A DNA stretch of 63,933 bases, the filler included, from Thelocarpon superellum (taxonomy: Eukaryota): NCBI GenBank assembly GCA_026025795.1. It is 7 parts of 7 records of this genome, joined end to end, with 100 filler letters (N's around TTAATTAATTAA, not from the genome) between each part and the next. Parts side by side here need not be neighbours in the genome. Positions count along the whole stretch, not along the records: positions 18,578 to 27,691 come from JAPEUG010000578.1; 6 more parts are not named here. The stretch is one strand, 5' to 3'. Under the pieces are notes generated by a model, which did not search any database, was not told the DNA's origin, and saw only the letters and a program-made list of their open reading frames with translations. The position numbers were made by a program, and so were the translations under genes. Of the stretch, positions 9,257-46,132 are shown one piece after another; position 1 is the stretch's first letter, and each line of letters starts with the position of its first letter.

Positions 9257-9356
9257 NNNNNNNNNNNNNNNNNNNNNNNNNNNNNNNNNNNNNNNNNNNN
9301 TTAATTAATTAANNNNNNNNNNNNNNNNNNNNNNNNNNNNNNNNNNNNNNNNNNNN
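9257..9356. other. Artificial contig linker (N44-TTAATTAATTAA-N44)
   Basis: Identical 100-bp spacer with stops in all six frames, found six times. Confidence 0.99.
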
Positions 9357-18477: not shown

Positions 18478-18577
18478 NNNNNNNNNNNNNNNNNNNNNNN
18501 NNNNNNNNNNNNNNNNNNNNNTTAATTAATTAANNNNNNNNNNNNNNNNNNNNNNNNNNNNNNNNNNNNNNNNNNNN
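18478..18577. other. Artificial contig linker
   Basis: N44-TTAATTAATTAA-N44. Confidence 0.99.
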
Positions 18578-19137
18578 TGATCTGCTCTGTTCCAGGAGAT
18601 GGCGGATTTAAGACCTTACGGCCGACTTGTTTCCGAATCTTTCGATCTTTATGTCTGTCTCTCGCTTTGTCATACGCTCGCTGCGCTCTTCCAGGACGGG
18701 CGTATGTTTGTTTGGACCGGCGAAGACGGGAGTAGAGCGGAAGTAGACGTGGGGGAACGGAGGAGAGGGGAGGAGAGAATCGCTGTACAAAAGAATGAAC
18801 GCAAAATGAAACAACATCAGCAAGCTTTGGTAGCCACAAGCAAATACCTGAACCTCGCCATTCATCATACACAAAGATACTCCTCGCTCCTTGTTTTCCC
18901 TTCCAAGCTCCTTTCCGTTCCGTTCCTCTCCTTTCCTTTGCCTCCCTTCCTTTCACACATGCTCCCTTAGCCTAGGACGCGCGAATGGTACAATCGCGCC
19001 ATACTTCTCGCGCCACGCAATGTTCAATCGGGTGACAGACCTTGTGCAAAGCCATGGTGCACATTCGTACCCTACAGACTCCTAGATCAGACGATCGCAC
19101 CACCGTATCCAGGATCCAAGATGCAGCAATAGATCTC

Positions 19138-20963
19138 TCAGGCTGCAGCGCTCCCGATTTGCATCTGCAGACTCGCGCCCTGCTCTGCGCCGTCTCTCAT
19201 CCCGCTCGTGGTGGCGGTGAGGCCGCCGCTGGCTGTGGCGGAGTTGGTCGCGCCGCTTCCGCTACCACTGCCGTTGCCGTTGCCGCCGCCGCCTCCGGTA
19301 CTATTGTTCCGTTTCTTCTCTTTCTTGGCCCATCGTACTACATCGGATCGTGTCAGTTGAAGTAGGAGAGGAGACGGTGGAAGAGGAAGGGTGACGCACG
19401 ACCACACGCATTACAGAGCGTCTTGGGTCCCGATGGGCCTTTTCGCCATTCGGGCGAATCTAGTGTGCCTATTCGTCCCGCCGATCAGTCCATGTCGCAG
19501 TGGGGGACGCCCAGGAGTGTCGCCCACCACAATCCGTGCAGACGTATTCGTCGGCCACTTTCAACTTCTTCTTCTTGTCGGACCCCGTGCGGTTGTCCTT
19601 GTCCACGGTGATGGCAATGCCGGCGTCGCCGCGGATCAGCGCGGGACTGGCATCGCCGGTACTGATGCCCTGGGAGCGTTCGCCGTCGCGATACCGAAGT
19701 CCCGTCAACATCTCAATCGTCTCAATGTGGGTGGCGCCCTCGTAGCGTGCCATCTTGTCGTTGATGCTGTCTGGTTTCGAGAAAGCATTGGCTTCGTCAA
19801 GGTTCTGCCGCGTCAACGCCGTGTTGGACGTGCCGGGCTTCGCGGGAGGCGGCATGGCGTGGAAGTCGTTGGACTGTGCCGACGTCATCGAGTGCGAGCC
19901 CGGGGTCTCACTCTCCGTCGGCTGCGTCTCCGAGGGTGTGAGGCTGCCTTGCCCCTCTTGCTTCTTGAGCCAGGGCCGCTGCTGATTCTCCGCCTCCTCT
20001 TGCTCCTCGCGCTTCAGGTCGGCGATGCGCTTTGTCAAGCGTTCGTTCTCGATCTTGTGCTCAAGGAAGGAATCTAGCAAAGCCGCGTTCTTGGCCGGAT
20101 ACGGCCGGGCCATCATGAAGAAGCCACGACAAAAGCCGCCGGCATTGTTGGGCCCAAACGCAGCCGCCTCCGACGTCAGGTGTGGATGGCCGTGCGACTC
20201 AAAGATGGCGTAGGTGCCGTCGGCTTTGCGGAAGCGATAGAAGAAGCGGAGCGGGTTGCCCGTGGCAATGGACTCGTGAAACTCGCGCACGAAGATGCTG
20301 CTATCGTCGGGGTGGATGAAGTCGACGATGAACTTGCCCATCAGGTCGTCATGGTCATAGCCGGTGATGGCCTTGGCCGACGGCGAAGCATATAAGACGC
20401 GGCCATCGGGCGTGAGGATGTGCAAGAAGTCCCGGAGCTCCTCTAAGACGCGGCGCGACCAGTTCCGCCGTTTGGTGAACTCGGTCAAGGTGCTGCCGCC
20501 GCCGACGTTGGCCTGCGTCCCAAAGCCGGTGGGCAAGGGACCGTCGCCGACTCCCGTGGTGGTTCCGTTGCTGGAAGCCTGCATGGCGTCCGACGTGCCC
20601 TCGTGCGTCGCGAGGTGGCTTGCGTTATCCTCGGCCGTGGTGGCAGAAAAGCCTGGCCGGTCGATGGTCTCATCCAGAGCAACGTCAAGATGCATGGGCA
20701 TCATATCCAAGCCCAGTCCGTCCAGGAGGTCGCCACTTTGCTCGAGCATGCCGGACATAGCGGCATCCTCGCCGAGGTCGGTCATCTGCCGTCGGGTCAG
20801 CTTCACGCGGCCCGTCTGGGCACGGCTCGCGCTACGAGGGGCCGGTGGGGAAGGAGGGGAGAGGAAAACGCACGCCGGCAGTGAAGATGGGCATACCCGG
20901 TGCCTCAAGGGACATCGACGTTCCCTCCACCGAGCCAGACGAGGGTGGGAGTGCGGAAGCCAT
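19138..20963 (-). CDS. wc-2: White collar-2 / LreB PAS + GATA zinc-finger transcription factor, 4 exons
   Basis: [15 protein letters not shown] domain (DFIHPDD), [15 protein letters not shown] and spliced GATA finger [32 protein letters not shown]. Confidence 0.96.
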
Positions 20964-21508
20964 CGATGGGTGATCGAGAACAGTCAACCCTATGAAGTGG
21001 CAACATCGAGACTCAACTGCCCAACCACGCTCCCCGACTCAGCGGTCTCTATCTTAGCCCGTGTGGGAAGGAAATGTCCCGCATTATCCTCATCCTGCGC
21101 TGCGAGCCTTACCATACTGACCAGCTACGCCCCATGGATTGTAGAGAGCAGCGGATTCGGGCCGCTTAACTGAGTTACCTAACCCGCCAGCCTTACTCCT
21201 CACGACCTAGGCCGTCCCTGGGTCATCGGTCGCTCGCTCCTACACGTGCTCTCGTGCAGCTCTCCCCACGTAAATGGGCTCGCTTGACGCGAGTCCCGGA
21301 ACATCGTGTAAGGAGCAAGACTTGTTGCCTCTTCAGCGGAATCTCGTTGTGGGAGACATTGGATCGAGCTTACGCTCCACGTGCTCCCAGCAATCGTCAG
21401 TCTGGTGTCGGCTGCGTGGGATGGGAATCCAGGTGGAACTTCTCCAGGCCTACTGATCCCATCGTTCTCGCGCCTCACCCACGGGCAGGCCAAGTTCCGA
21501 TAGCTAGA

Positions 21509-24500
21509 ATGTAAGCATCGCTGCCGTGGCCCCGACAATTACCCGCTAATCAGGACTCTGTGCTTCACAGGTGTATGTCGGATGAGACCTGCCCGCGTCA
21601 TCTGTTGCTTTTGATCATTTCTGATGCGTGGTAGCGAAAATTGATAAGCTCTCGATCCTGGGGTTCGTTCCACCTCCGGCGCCGGGCCTCGACAGCGATG
21701 GTTACCCTGCTCACCTGCTGCCTAGCGTCCGCTCCTTTGACAATACGCGGAGTGAAACCATCCAATTTCAAACGCCGTTGACCTTGATTGTCGGATACAA
21801 TGGCTCGGGCAAGACGGTTGAGCTCGCTCACGCTGCCTCAGATCTACAGCGCTTACGTGACCACAGACGATCATCGAATGTCTCAAATATGCCACTACGG
21901 GGGATCTGCCTCCAAACAGCCGAGGGGGAGCCTTCATACATGATCCAAAGGTATGACTCACGGTGAATTGCGGTCCTGGGATGGTCGTTGATAAACACCC
22001 CAGCTGTGCGGAGAGAAGGAGGTCTTGGCCCAAGTCAAGCTCTCCTTCAAAGGCACCTCTGGCGCCAAGATGGTGGCGACCCGGAGCCTCCAGCTCACGG
22101 TCAAGAAGGCGACCCGCCAACAAAAGAGCCTCGAGGGTCAACTGCTCATGATCAAGGATGGCGAGCGGACAGCCATCTCCTCCCGCGTCGCCGAGCTGGA
22201 CCAGATTATGCCGCAGTATCTCGGCGTGTCGCGCGCCATCCTCGATTCTGTCATCTTCTGCCACCAGGATGAGAGCCTGTGGCCCATGAGCGAGCCCTCG
22301 GTGCTCAAGAAGAAGTTTGACGAGATCTTCGAGGCTATGAAGTACACGAAGGCCATCGACAACATCAAGGTCCTACGCAAGAAGCAAACCGAGGAGCTGG
22401 GCAAGTATAAGCTGCTCGAGCAGCAGTACAAGATCGATAAAGATCGCGCCGACCGGGCGGAGAGGCAGTCCAAGCTGCTGGCCGACGAGATTGAGCAGCT
22501 GCGCCGCGAGTGCCACCAGCTCAAACACGACATCGACCAGGCCACCCGCGAGGCTGACCGGCTCTGGGCCGAAGCAGCCGCATACGAAAAGATCATCGGC
22601 ACCCTCGACGGCAGGCGTATCGAGGCCAGGGTCGTCCGAACGACTATGGAGGACTTGGCTCAACACATCGAGCAGATGCAGGAGTCCGACGAATGGCTGA
22701 CCACGACTTTGGAGAACTACGAGGCGCGAGTTTCTGAGCTCGACCAACGCATCGACGTCCAACGGCAAGAGTACGATCAGGTCGGCAAGACCATCGAGGA
22801 GCATCGCCAACGGCTGGGCGCTACGCTGACCGACGTGGGCAAGTACGAGGCCGAGAAGGCCCAGCATGACCGGCAGCTGGCCCAGCGGGAGACGTTGATC
22901 AAAGAGACGGCGAGACGACACGCGATGCGTGGTTTCGATACCGATCTCGATAGCGCACTCATCGACGACTTCATGGTCCGCATCAACAAGATGGCCCGTG
23001 ATCAGACTCTCGCCTTGGACCGCGCCAAGGCCGAGGCGCGCGACGCCTTGCAAGACGCCCAGGCAGCCCTCAACCGGCTGAGCGAGCAACGATCCACGTG
23101 GAACCAACGCAAGCTGTTCGCCAAGCAGGAGATCTCCGCCAATGATAACAAGATCATCGGCATCCAAGCGGAGCTCGATCGGATCGATATCGACGAGGGC
23201 AGACTCGCTACCTTGAGCTCCGCTGTCACCGCCGTCGATGCCCGCTTGGCGGCGGCGAAGGACGAGTTCGATCATGCCGCGTGGGAAGACCAGCTTCACG
23301 CCGCGAATCAACAGCTTCGAGAGTGTGAGGAGGGTGCCGAGCGTTTGAACGCTAAGATGGTGGAGAGCACGCGGAAAGCCGGTGATGTCGCCAAGCTCCA
23401 CTTCATGCGGAATGAGCTGCGCGATCGGCAGCAGAGTCTGGATATCATGTGCAGCGCTCACGGCGACAAGATCGCTGCCACAGTCGGCGCGGGTTGGCAG
23501 CCGACTCACCTCGAGCGTGACTTTCACGCCGTGCTTGAGCAGAAGAAGGAGGATTTTTCCGAGGCTGAACGGCAACGGGACGGCGTGACGAGGGAACTTG
23601 AGCAGATCGAGCTTCGACTCCACCTCGCCCGGGACGCGCTGAAGAAGAGGCGGCAAGAGAAGGCCGCCGCCGAGAAGCTCATCGGTGAAGCCATCGGCGA
23701 CGAACCAAGCGATTATTCGGAAATCCTTGCCCAGCTCGAGGAGCGTCGCGACATTCGACGGGGCGATGTAGACGGCTTCGCCCACCTTCGCAATTACTAC
23801 TCGCTCTGCCTCAAGTCGGCCAAAGAAAACGACGTCTGCCGTCTCTGCGTGCGGCCCTTTCACGCCAAAAAAGAGCAAGCCGACTTCGTCGCTCGACTCG
23901 AGCGACTGATCTCGCAAGGGGGCCAAAAGCGTGCGGAGGATGAGCTGCGTGAGTACGAGGCGGATCTAGCCAAGGCTAAGCAAGTTGGCCCTAGCTACGA
24001 TGCCTATCAGCGGCTCTCCACCACGGAAATTCCCCAGTTAGAGGCCGAGAGCAACGCACACGAGTTGCGGCGAGAGAAAGTCTTGACACAGATAGAGGAA
24101 CAGGATGCGAGCGTCAGTCGCCGAGGGACCGCGATGAAGGAGGTGGAGTCGCTGAGCAAGACGGTGCACAATCTGGTCAAATACCGGGTGGAGATGGATG
24201 GCTTTGAGGCCCAGATCGAGGAGCTTGCGGCTCGGCACAGCGAGGTTGGCGAAACACAGACGCTGGAAGAGATCCAGGAACAGCTCGGCGCTCTGGGCGA
24301 GCAGTCGCGCGCCATCAAAAAGACCATCGCACGCGTGACGGGAGACAAGGACCGCGGCCGTGCCCAGATCAATGCCCTCGAGCTGGAGACACGAGACGTT
24401 CGGACGAAGCTGACTAACGCCACCTACCACCTGGAGAAGAAAGGCACCCTGGTGGTGCGGGTGGACGAGCTACGCCGCGCCAATGAGACACAACGCGAGG

Positions 24501-25810
24501 CCATCGTACAGGCGGATCAGGCGCTCGAGAAGATGGCGCCCGATTTCGCCAAGGCGCAGACCAAGTACGATGACATCAATCAACAGGGTGCGGAGAGGGA
24601 ACGGGAGCTACAGCAGCAAGCCCGCAAGATCTCGGACAGCGTGTACCAGGTGAAGCTGGCGGAGCAAGAGATCCATGCCTACGTTGAGAAGGGGGGGCCC
24701 GATCAGCTGGCGCAATGTCAGCAAAGTGTGCAGCAGCTTGAGCAAGCCATCGCGCGCTTCGAGGGCGAGCAGCGCCAGGTGGCGGCGGAGATCAACAAGG
24801 TAGTGAAGCAAAAGGATGAGAACGACCGGACGAAGCGGACCATCGCCGACAACGTCCAGTACCGCCGCTCCGTGGCAACGTTGGAGAAGGTCCGCGGCGA
24901 GATTGCGGAGCTCGAGGCTAAGAATGCCGAGGTCGACCGCGAACGCTTCGTCCAGGAGGCCGACAAGATGAGTGTGAGACATCGAAAACTCTCGGCGGAG
25001 GAAGCGACGAAGATCGGGGTGATGAAGTCCAAAGACAACGAGCTGACGCGTCTGCTGAACGACTGGAACACGGATTACAAAGACGCGGCGAAGAATTTCA
25101 AGGAGTCGCACATCAAGGTCGAGACGACGAAAGCGGCGGTGGAGGACTTGGGTCGTTATGGCAGCGCCTTGGACAAGGCCATCATGAAGTATCACGGGCT
25201 CAAGATGGAAGAGATCAATCGCATTGTGGAGGAACTGTGGAAGCGGACATATCAAGGGACCGATGTGGATACGATCCTCATCCGGTCCGACAACGAAAGT
25301 GGCAAGGGCAATCGCTCATACAACTATCGGGTCCGTCCCCTTGCGTACGCCGTCACGGCTCTCTGCTGACATTGGACTGGTAGGTGTGCATGGTCAAGCA
25401 AGACGTGGAGATGGACATGCGGGGTCGGTGCAGTGCTGGCCAGAAGGTGCTGGCCAGTATCCTCATCCGGCTGGCGCTGGCCGAGTGCTTCGGCACCAAC
25501 TGCGGCCTGATTGCACTCGACGAGCCGACGACAAATCTCGACCGGGACAACATCCGGGCGCTGGCGGAGTCGCTTCACGACATCATCAACGCACGACGAC
25601 AGCAGTCCAACTTTCAGCTGATCGTCATCACGCACGATGAAGATTTCCTTCGCTACATGAAATGTGCCGACTTCTGCGATAACTACTACCGGGTCTCGCG
25701 GAATGATCGCCAGAAGTCCATCATCGTGCGGTAAGGTGGTCGCGTGACATCCATGGAGAGCGGAGACTGATGCGCGCAGACAATCCATCGCCGAGGTTAC
25801 TTCCTTCTGA
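21509..25810 (+). CDS. RAD50: DNA repair ATPase Rad50, multi-exon
   Basis: [15 protein letters not shown], Walker [17 protein letters not shown], zinc hook CRLC, signature CSAGQK, Walker [12 protein letters not shown]-loop VITHD. The stop position is tentative because a further small intron is possible. Confidence 0.97.
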
Positions 25811-27691
25811 GCCGCGGTCACCAGGTCTGGATAGGCTCTCGGCGTTCTGCGCAGCGGCTGCGGCGCTCCGGTTTCGAATAGGCATAAACGATCAGGGACG
25901 TCACAGGTGCATAAGGGGCGTTGTGAAATAAGCTTGCAAGGGGGCAGCGAGGCGTACCCGGATGTCTCAGCAGAATGATTCCCATTTCCAGTCTCATTTG
26001 ATAGGTTACATCCCGCTGAACTGACATGGACAGCTTACACAGGAGCGAAAAGGGGAAGGGGTAAGGGGGTGCTGTGATGGATCTGGTCGCTCGTAGCTCC
26101 AGTGTTCCTTCGATACGTACCCTCTCTTCTCGGGAAAGGGAAGAGATGTTGGTCCCAGCTTCACAATTCCGATGTCTGAACTGTCAGAGCGTAAAGCAGG
26201 GAGGTGAGCACGTGCGCGCTGGTAGTTCCGTGCAAGTGATGATCCGAACCACGCGACAACTGGATTCATTCCCTGCATACCGTTCGATCCAAGGCGAGGC
26301 GAGGCAATGCAATGCAACGCAATGCCATGACAACAGACGGTCTCAAGAGCAACCGACCCCCTTTCCCCCTACGTGTCGTCTCATCGACGGGATGACCGGG
26401 GGCCCTAATCTTAGCGCCAGATATAGCCATTTTGCGATAGCGTCCGTCCGTCGTGGCCGCTTCTGACCACTGGTGGAGAAGCTGCCATCCGAAAGTGGAG
26501 ACGGGCATGGACTGGGCGCGCAAGGTGCAGACGCATCGCATGAACGCTCATGCGTCGGTCAACGCGAAAAGAAGTGGTCGGGACGAACCAGGATGCTGGA
26601 TGAGGGATCCTCCAGCCCGTCGCTACCAGCGGAGCAGAGCAACGATTCTCCTAGGCGACTTTGGCGATAGGTAGCGTATAGGGTCACGTAGTTAGCGGGA
26701 ATCAGCGAATGTTCCACGTCCTGTCTCGAACACTCCCTCGCCGGCACCTTGACGACTTAGGTGACATGCGCGCATGTTACTCGACCTTCTTGCCTGTACG
26801 AGTTTTCGCGGTCGCACCCTGCAACGGCTGCGTTGCTTACCTGTACCGTTGGTCATCGTTGGACGCTGTTCTGCTCGCTTCCCAGGTAACGTCCGGGTAC
26901 GAGAATTACCACTACTACTTTACTAGTAGTAAGTACTGGTAGGTAGTAGTAGCTCCTAGGAAGTACCGCTACTTAGCAGTTATCATGGTATGAGTAACAG
27001 TAGGTCGCTGCGGAAAGGCAACGGCTGGGGGGTTGTCACGCTGGTAAGCGACTGCCCGTGTGCATTGATGGTATCATGACTAGGAAAATGTGGGGAGCGG
27101 GCCACAGTCGATCGGCGCAGGTTGGTTTCCAACCAACGCGAACGTACGGAGGATTTCGGACTGTTATACGCAGGACATCTGGCACCGCGCAACGTCGATC
27201 GTGACTCCTGACAGGATGCATCTATCTGCGAATTTGACATCCACTCTCATGCAAGACGCCATCCGTCGGCCGAGAGATCGGTTCGTGCTCTTGACAGGCC
27301 ACACGGGCGTCGCTGTTGGCCGCGCGGCGCTCCATCCTTCGCGCATCCTGCCGGTGGTCATGTCGAAGCTTGGCGGTCGTCGTGACATGGGACATGGATG
27401 GGTCAGTGGGCAAGGGGAGCCCGGGAACGAAGAGGTACCACCATGCGGATGACAACAATGCCATGTGGTAGTTTATCCTGCGTGTTGACACAGTCATTTC
27501 TTTAGGTGTGAGACATGAGGACTGATCTTCATTATTCACTATTACCTCCCTTGTCAGTCGGGGCTAACTAGATGAGAATCTCCAAGGATCCCTGAACACT
27601 CAATGCTCAACGCTCACTCGCCCAACTAAATACACCCAAGTCGACTATACCCAACAGGCAGTCAAGGTTCGGAAACCCACAGCGGATGAGA

Positions 27692-27791
27692 NNNNNNNNN
27701 NNNNNNNNNNNNNNNNNNNNNNNNNNNNNNNNNNNTTAATTAATTAANNNNNNNNNNNNNNNNNNNNNNNNNNNNNNNNNNNNNNNNNNNN
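27692..27791. other. Artificial contig linker
   Basis: N44-TTAATTAATTAA-N44. Confidence 0.99.
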
Positions 27792-36891: not shown

Positions 36892-36991
36892 NNNNNNNNN
36901 NNNNNNNNNNNNNNNNNNNNNNNNNNNNNNNNNNNTTAATTAATTAANNNNNNNNNNNNNNNNNNNNNNNNNNNNNNNNNNNNNNNNNNNN
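36892..36991. other. Artificial contig linker
   Basis: N44-TTAATTAATTAA-N44. Confidence 0.99.
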
Positions 36992-46032: not shown

Positions 46033-46132
46033 NNNNNNNNNNNNNNNNNNNNNNNNNNNNNNNNNNNNNNNNNNNNTTAATTAATTAANNNNNNNNNNNN
46101 NNNNNNNNNNNNNNNNNNNNNNNNNNNNNNNN
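46033..46132. other. Artificial contig linker
   Basis: N44-TTAATTAATTAA-N44. Confidence 0.99.

Follow-up and report, generated by a model that had tools for sequence, protein, structure and literature searches.

Where does the Rad50 protein begin in the fungus Thelocarpon superellum? RAD50 is a core gene of double-strand-break repair and meiosis, and fungal studies use it as a marker of sexual capacity. The gene at about 21509–25810 (+) of the 63,933-base stretch of T. superellum DNA analysed here (hereafter the window) is, judged by its sequence, the RAD50 of a lichen-forming ascomycete. Its first conserved coding exon, exon 3 below, starts at 21635, and no in-frame ATG lies between the preceding stop and this exon. 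We propose that the start codon is very probably split, AT/G (slashes mark splice boundaries throughout), and completed by a 2-nucleotide (nt) exon, GT, that sits between two ordinary introns.

The 5′ end of RAD50 in the window

Spliced in this way, the coding sequence stays open throughout (3912 nt, 1303 amino acids (aa), at about 21509–25810 (+)), and its translation carries the Walker A motif GYNGSGKT, the zinc hook CRLC and the usual C-terminal half of Rad50. The long exon at 22004–25330 is 100% identical over 1109 aa to the public Rad50 of T. superellum (P0001), a protein with Pfam matches to AAA_23, SMC_N and SbcC_Walker_B. The proposed elements of the 5′ end, all on the plus strand, are as follows, with the basis of each in brackets.

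21509–21510 (+): end of exon 1, AT, bases 1 and 2 of the start codon (sequence, and the same position in the 14 other loci with this layout)
21511–21570 (+): intron 1, 60 nt, with donor GTAAGC, GCTAAT at 21545–21550 and acceptor CACAG (sequence and comparison)
21571–21572 (+): two-base exon GT, whose G ends ATG and whose T opens the serine codon TCG (the sole two-step GT–AG solution; invariant)
21573–21634 (+): intron 2, 62 nt, with donor GTATGT, TCTGAT at 21620–21625 and acceptor GGTAG (sequence and comparison)
21635–21662 (+): exon 3, 28 nt, CGAAAATTGATAAGCTCTCGATCCTGGG, in frame CG AAA ATT GAT AAG CTC TCG ATC CTG GG (sequence)

Read directly, positions 21509–21662 with the three bases before them run AGAAT/GTAAGC..GCTAAT..CACAG/GT/GTATGT..TCTGAT..GGTAG/CGAAAATT, and the sequence up to 21510, the end of exon 1, is ..GCTAGAAT. 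Every coordinate and motif given in a preliminary description of this locus is borne out base for base. Each of the two introns has its own GT..AG ends, a consensus-like donor and a branch site at a workable distance: the branch A of GCTAAT lies 21 nt from the 3′ end of intron 1, and that of TCTGAT lies 10 nt from the 3′ end of intron 2, a phase-1 intron within codon 2. Joining AT, GT and CG gives ATG TCG AAA ATT, or Met-Ser-Lys-Ile (MSKI), after which exon 3 continues as (S)KIDKLSILG. This N-terminus is the canonical one for Rad50, since the alignment with the solved Rad50 of Chaetomium thermophilum (7zr1_C) begins at residue 1 of that protein, which there reads MSKIEKLSILGVRSF; among solved Rad50 structures, 7zr1_C matches the orthologue P0037 over its full length (E = 4.9e-285).

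The reading frame depends on the two bases. Without GT the ATG is missing, and skipping the 2-nt exon loses the start codon. The window does hold a contiguous ATG, at 21509–21511, which overlaps the first donor; with intron 1 unspliced the message reads ATG TAA.

We searched for other ways of reaching the same message by brute force, taking all GT..AG excisions of 20–200 nt within 21480–21680. No single GT–AG intron in this range yields ATGT joined to CGAAAATT, and exactly one two-step solution exists, the removal of 21511–21570 and of 21573–21634. The order of the two removals is irrelevant, the product being identical both ways. A single intron at 21511–21634 is rejected, as it yields TAG CTA GAA TCG AAA, with the ATG absent.

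The arrangement is also rare. A strict composite pattern, ATGTRNGY-N25-55-CTRAY-N3-25-YAGGTGTRNGY, has one match in the entire window, at 21509–21578, and none in 100 dinucleotide-preserving shuffles, so that the arrangement is far above chance expectation. No unusual RNA structure was found at 21495–21665, where the fold has z = +0.72 and 148 of 200 shuffles are at least as stable; on this ground we reject an RNA structure that would draw the splice sites close to each other. A scan for bacterial promoters and terminators over 20900–21700 gave no match, and such a scan is irrelevant to a eukaryote.

The same layout at other fungal RAD50 loci

Conserved sequence in exon 3 served as an anchor for comparison. 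Metagenome contigs were scanned for KI[DE]KLSILG, which returned at least 118 loci, and a locus was taken as RAD50 where RSF and Walker A motifs follow downstream and the product is 66–100% identical to fungal Rad50 proteins. Among the matches listed, 15 are fungal RAD50; the statements below on these loci refer to the matches listed. The other 103 were dropped as chance or unrelated matches, two of them (L046 and L077) carrying the RSF motif only.

The architecture of the window, AT/GT-intron-YAG/GT/GT-intron-YAG/C, recurs in 14 of the 15 fungal loci. In the window, as in each of the 14, AT stands directly before the donor, and position −3 is a purine in all 15 of these sequences. The homologues of intron 1 measure 48–62 nt in the 14 loci and carry a CTRAY-type branch site 9–27 nt from YAG (AAG in one group). 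The two-base GT is invariant and occupies the same position in the window and the 14 loci alike. It is followed by donors of intron 2 that read GTAAGT in eight loci, GTACGT in three, GTATGC in two and GTTGAG in one. The homologues of intron 2 are 51–122 nt long and lead into C(G/A/C) AAR ATH GAY, with serine as codon 2 throughout. All 14 loci have a standard branch site in intron 1, and 12 have one in intron 2.

As in the window, no single GT–AG intron (20–300 nt) restores ATGT plus the exon in any of the 14 loci, and every two-step solution that includes the conserved intron 2 leaves GT. Three extra formal two-step solutions exist at one locus (L010); these rely on poor sites and leave a gap of 3 nt. 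When the 16 regions are aligned with MAFFT, mean column identity is 40% and conservation is confined to ATGT, AGGTGTA-GT, the final acceptor and the exon; the splice signals therefore appear to have been kept while the intron interiors diverged beyond alignment. The strict composite pattern matched 7 of the at least 118 loci, all seven of them RAD50. It under-counts the layout, catching 7 of the 14, because each of the other seven has a base in a donor, branch site or acceptor that departs from it.

This comparison strongly supports the split start AT/G and the GT exon leading to MSKI, as the preliminary description had proposed, and both of the intron positions whose conservation it had left to an alignment of RAD50 5′ ends are conserved in the 14 loci. 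It had treated the arrangement as a local oddity; the feature is instead old and conserved. On the same comparative footing, inclusion of the 2-nt exon in the messenger RNA (mRNA) is highly probable.

Several points weigh against the proposed structure. The joined sequence AGAATGT/CGAAA cannot separate GT 21571–21572 from GT 21511–21512. The public annotation of the same gene, P0001, uses a different model, considered below. An entry for Trichophyton benhamiae (P0133, TPA_exp, an RNA-based third-party annotation) starts ..SVPKIDKL; this is probably weak counter-evidence, aligners and gene predictors rarely placing 2-nt exons. In two related loci, L008 and L062, intron 2 lacks a standard CTRAY at the usual spacing before its acceptor. 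The 14 loci are not independent, L013, L038 and L082 being close to one another and L008 close to L062, which leaves about 11 lineages. The record, finally, is a metagenome assembly, and a base error in the window is possible.

The first of these points opens the way to an alternative in which the same mRNA arises by removal of one non-canonical AA..AG intron, 21513–21634, the retained GT being 21511–21512 and no 2-nt exon being involved. Its mature sequence would be identical, so the mRNA cannot distinguish it from the two-intron route. For the 2-nt exon over GT 21511–21512, only the conserved internal branch site and YAG/GT/GTAAGT argue. These are the very features that an AA..AG intron leaves unexplained: about 50–60 nt past the ATG, 14 of the 15 loci have a perfect GTAAGT or GTATGT donor together with a branch site and a YAG, despite introns that have otherwise diverged. 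To our knowledge AA–AG is not a recognised spliceosomal boundary, which counts further against this alternative, and we consider it highly improbable.

The last point bears on a broken or mis-assembled start region, or on initiation elsewhere, either at a codon other than AUG or at an AUG farther downstream. In favour of such readings are the metagenomic origin of the assembled genome and the near-cognate codons that lie in frame if only intron 2 is removed (CTG at 21521 and GTG at 21560). The rest of the gene, however, is intact, with its frame of 1303 codons and all motifs, and a downstream AUG would delete the Walker A region. An error of bases or assembly is unlikely because relatives share the layout; 14 other loci rule out a local one. 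Taken together, we regard this group of explanations as scarcely credible.

The split start with its GT exon can be placed on several named lineages. One locus (L049) matches a Penicillium canescens Rad50 over 246 aa at 100% identity, another (L004) matches an Aspergillus terreus protein at 90%, and a third (L033) shows 81–83% identity to the Rad50 of Pseudogymnoascus, a Leotiomycete. Thelocarpales themselves are placed in taxonomy as leotiomyceta incertae sedis. The layout thus seems common to Eurotiomycetes, a Leotiomycete and Thelocarpales, covering both main branches of leotiomyceta, and would for that reason date back to early filamentous ascomycetes. The early filamentous ascomycetes lived a few hundred million years ago. 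Most simply, the layout would be a frozen ancestral structure under purifying selection on an important gene.

The fifteenth locus (L064:152-1096) differs: it reads contiguous ACCATGTCGAAAATC, with an unbroken ATGTCG, and is intronless over 352 codons. Even the nearest named proteins share only about 69% identity with it. It may represent either a lineage that has lost all 5′ introns or an RNA-derived contig. Sordariomycetes may lack the split start as well, as is suggested by the MSRI and MSKI starts of their ordinary annotations: an MS[KR]I start is found in 14 of 47 further homologues, including models of Hypocreales and Microascales that come from ordinary pipelines.

Proposed splicing route and known splicing systems

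In the route that we propose, exon 1 (..AT) would be followed by a 60-nt U2-type intron, the GT exon, a 62-nt U2-type intron and the exon CG AAA ATT. With both introns out and GT kept, the message would read AUG UCG AAA AUU. Each intron would be recognised alone by intron definition, through a donor, a CTRAY branch site and a YAG acceptor of its own. Short fungal introns are recognised by intron definition, and therefore the 2-nt exon would need no signal of its own; at 60 and 62 nt, introns 1 and 2 fall within the 49–63 nt range of the introns in this gene.

Only 2 nt separate the acceptor of intron 1 from the second donor, and two spliceosomes could probably not occupy them simultaneously. 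Splicing would be consecutive, in either order, because, around the second donor, the region bound by U1 and later by U5 and U6 includes the acceptor of intron 1. The preliminary description had gone further, supposing an obligatory sequential removal of the kind seen in twin introns. That part is not supported: both introns are complete, either order gives the same product and the sequence imposes none, so that sequential removal is a steric argument only. If intron 1 leaves first, the junction would become AT/GTGTAxGT, in which GTAAGT or GTATGT is a much better donor than GTGTAx. The stronger downstream donor would then be cut 2 nt farther on, and GT would be kept. The locus would offer a natural, deeply conserved test case of how the spliceosome copes with an acceptor and a donor 2 nt apart.

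Failures of this route, whether retention of intron 1 (AUG followed by a stop) or skipping of the 2-nt exon (AUG absent), would give no Rad50. Retention places a stop immediately after the AUG in 12 of the 15 sequences with the layout. A regulated switch built on this, in which skipping of the 2-nt exon or retention of intron 1 turns Rad50 synthesis off in certain conditions, is an idea of the preliminary description and would add to the structural model, and both failure products are clean 'off' states in an arrangement preserved over a very long time. The AUG-stop, however, is automatic wherever the donor consensus GT(A/G)(A/G)G follows AT, and selection need not be involved in it. Persistence requires no function either, introns at 5′ ends being rarely lost. 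No conserved RNA structure accompanies the site (the fold z of +0.72 given above), and the contiguous ATGTCG of L064, like the Sordariomycete MSRI and MSKI models, suggests that the gene works without the device. Regulation of this kind is unlikely on balance. The same doubt extends to a fuller version, in which the split AUG, the AUG-stop and the 2-nt exon would form a conserved licensing device, only complete and correct splicing making the Rad50 mRNA translatable and filamentous fungi tuning Rad50 dosage by skipping or retention, in meiosis or upon DNA damage for instance; this we put forward as a tentative and rather improbable idea.

Ultra-short exons are the closest known relatives of the RAD50 GT exon. 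Published cases include the 2-nt exons in a long-read annotation of Coprinopsis cinerea, 57 in number and spread over 50 genes (PMC12230235), a read-supported 1-nt exon in Fusarium CYP621A (PMC12940212) and a 1-nt exon in Arabidopsis APC11 (PMC4674806). In such cases from fungi and plants, two ordinary GT–AG introns flank an exon devoid of signals whose omission destroys the frame, automated annotation misses it and relatives conserve it; the RAD50 exon appears alike in all these respects. It differs from those cases in lying inside the start codon and codon 2, where it creates the AUG, in belonging to a core repair gene and in being conserved across distant classes, not in one genus, and it is known from sequence comparison. 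We thus view the RAD50 exon as an ultra-short exon of a type already known in fungi, apparently new in completing a start codon and in the depth of its conservation. In the literature outside subscription journals, we found neither a split start codon nor a 2-nt exon described for RAD50 in fungi.

Stwintrons, known from Pezizomycotina, invite a second comparison. They are defined by an external intron whose donor, branch site or acceptor is split by an internal one (PMC8469720, PMC5587772, PMC12403724). By that account the external intron is absent until the internal one has been removed, and nothing between them is kept. RAD50 resembles this situation in occurring in the same fungi, with two short U2 introns in one place that are probably spliced consecutively. 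In contrast to a stwintron, both RAD50 introns are complete from the outset, their order is free and 2 nt are retained. The layout is not a stwintron because no splice element is interrupted: donor, branch site and acceptor are intact in both introns, and both orders lead to the same product.

Recursive splicing, the third system, uses ratchet points (YAG/GTAAGT) in long animal introns, with a zero-length or removable exon. The RAD50 layout shares with ratchet points an acceptor set against a strong donor, a stepwise removal and a regenerated junction donor that competes with the downstream donor. Ratchet points belong to very long introns, whereas the RAD50 introns are about 60 nt and 2 coding nt are kept between them. 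A recursive splice site is rejected on the finding that, in the window and the 14 loci alike, AG and GT are parted by two bases, which the start codon requires.

Gene body, public protein models and neighbourhood

Beyond exon 3, the RAD50 gene and the rival first exon of its public model are laid out as follows.

21663–21725 (+): intron 3, 63 nt, GTTCGT..CTCAC..CCTAG (from the open frame of the spliced gene)
21726–21816, 21867–21950, 22004–25330, 25384–25730 and 25780–25810 (+): RAD50 exons after intron 3, the last with the stop
21274–21307 (+): rival first coding exon in P0001, ATG..T, encoding MGSLDASPGTS (deposited model)

The introns that follow intron 3 measure 50, 53, 53 and 49 nt, so that the five introns beyond the first two span 49–63 nt. 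In P0001, the 34-nt exon (MGSLDASPGTS plus T) ends at a GTAAGG donor at 21308 and is joined to 21635 across a 327-nt intron that ends at 21634. If this deposited model is right, the protein starts at ATG 21274 and no split start is needed. It has in its favour that seven candidate GTs within 20950–21600 would carry an ATG-initiated open frame into 21635 and that only the one at 21308 is consensus-like as a donor. Its 327-nt intron, however, is five times longer than any other in RAD50, and its 11-residue extension occurs in none of the other 166 homologues surveyed. The model also keeps intron 3 as coding, about 150 bases farther on, inserting about 21 residues into the invariant ILG/VRSF (22 extra columns between G21 and R44 in the alignment), and is visibly unreliable on that account. 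It ignores signals conserved in 14 of the 15 other loci, and the solved fungal Rad50 begins at MSKI. A start at ATG 21274 is thus very unlikely. The donor at 21308 is followed about 80 nt later by CTTAC and CCCAG; 21308–21390 could be an intron in the 5′ untranslated region if transcription begins farther upstream.

If the proposed structure is correct, most public annotations for Eurotiomycetes, lichen fungi and their relatives would lack the true RAD50 start. We surveyed the N-termini of the 120 best homologues, and then those of the 47 further homologues mentioned above. The 120 best fall into the following classes.

N-terminus exactly MSKI: 10 of 120, the correct start
MSKI behind an extension: 3 of 120, the start inside a longer model
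R or K followed by S before KIDKL: 10 of 120, read-through of ..AGG or ..AAG, then T/CG
A before KIDKL: 14 of 120, read-through of the last acceptor, AG/CG
Other S, P or T before KIDKL: 9 of 120, an NCG codon
Only part of the exon: 3 of 120, truncated
Exon absent: 71 of 120, missed

A start at or containing MSKI is thus absent from 107 of the 120. The expectation that gene predictors would miss this start is met both here and in P0001, which is wrong in its other upstream exon as well as in its retained intron 3. The residue that precedes KIDKL in the wrong models is S, A, P or T, consistent with an NCG codon. In the sister species Thelocarpon impressellum, the model P0002 carries 21 codons and a T before CG, and we infer that this extension corresponds to AT, 60 nt and GT read through in frame, ending in Arg. 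Intron 1 of the Penicillium canescens locus (L049) encodes MYGSFPEP, which is the false N-terminus of another P. canescens model. The correct mRNA has probably been captured already for some species, because some public models do start with MSKI.

A separate report on lichen fungi touches the same codon. In that study, a conserved rad50 start codon could not be identified in Lepraria, Stereocaulon and Cladonia (PMC11515122), a failure that a split start would explain. The locus may also serve as a benchmark for those gene predictors and aligners of RNA sequencing reads that are unable to place 2-nt exons.

Two further observations concern the public entries. Three annotations of Penicillium canescens (P0028, P0040 and P0111) give three different Rad50 N-termini, MYGSFPEP.., MLIP.. 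and MSQQRS... A full-length Rad50 of fungal type, P0140, is deposited under the tree Carpinus fangiana and probably derives from fungal DNA in the assembly of that species.

The window itself is a chain of separate contigs of about 9.1 kilobases (kb), joined every 9.1–9.2 kb or so by spacers of 44 N, TTAATTAATTAA and 44 N. The six spacers lie at the following positions.

9257–9356, 18478–18577, 27692–27791, 36892–36991, 46033–46132 and 55122–55221

Gene neighbourhood across a spacer is therefore meaningless. RAD50 and its upstream neighbour both lie on one piece of 9114 bases, 18578–27691. This neighbour is an open reading frame of 504 codons with a PAS domain (19469–20983 (−); Pfam PAS_3, E = 1.3e-15), transcribed away from RAD50, and about 520 bases of shared upstream region separate it from the RAD50 ATG. 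Near the C-terminal end of its product stands a CTDCG motif, and we presume a resemblance to light-signalling regulators of the PAS/GATA type.

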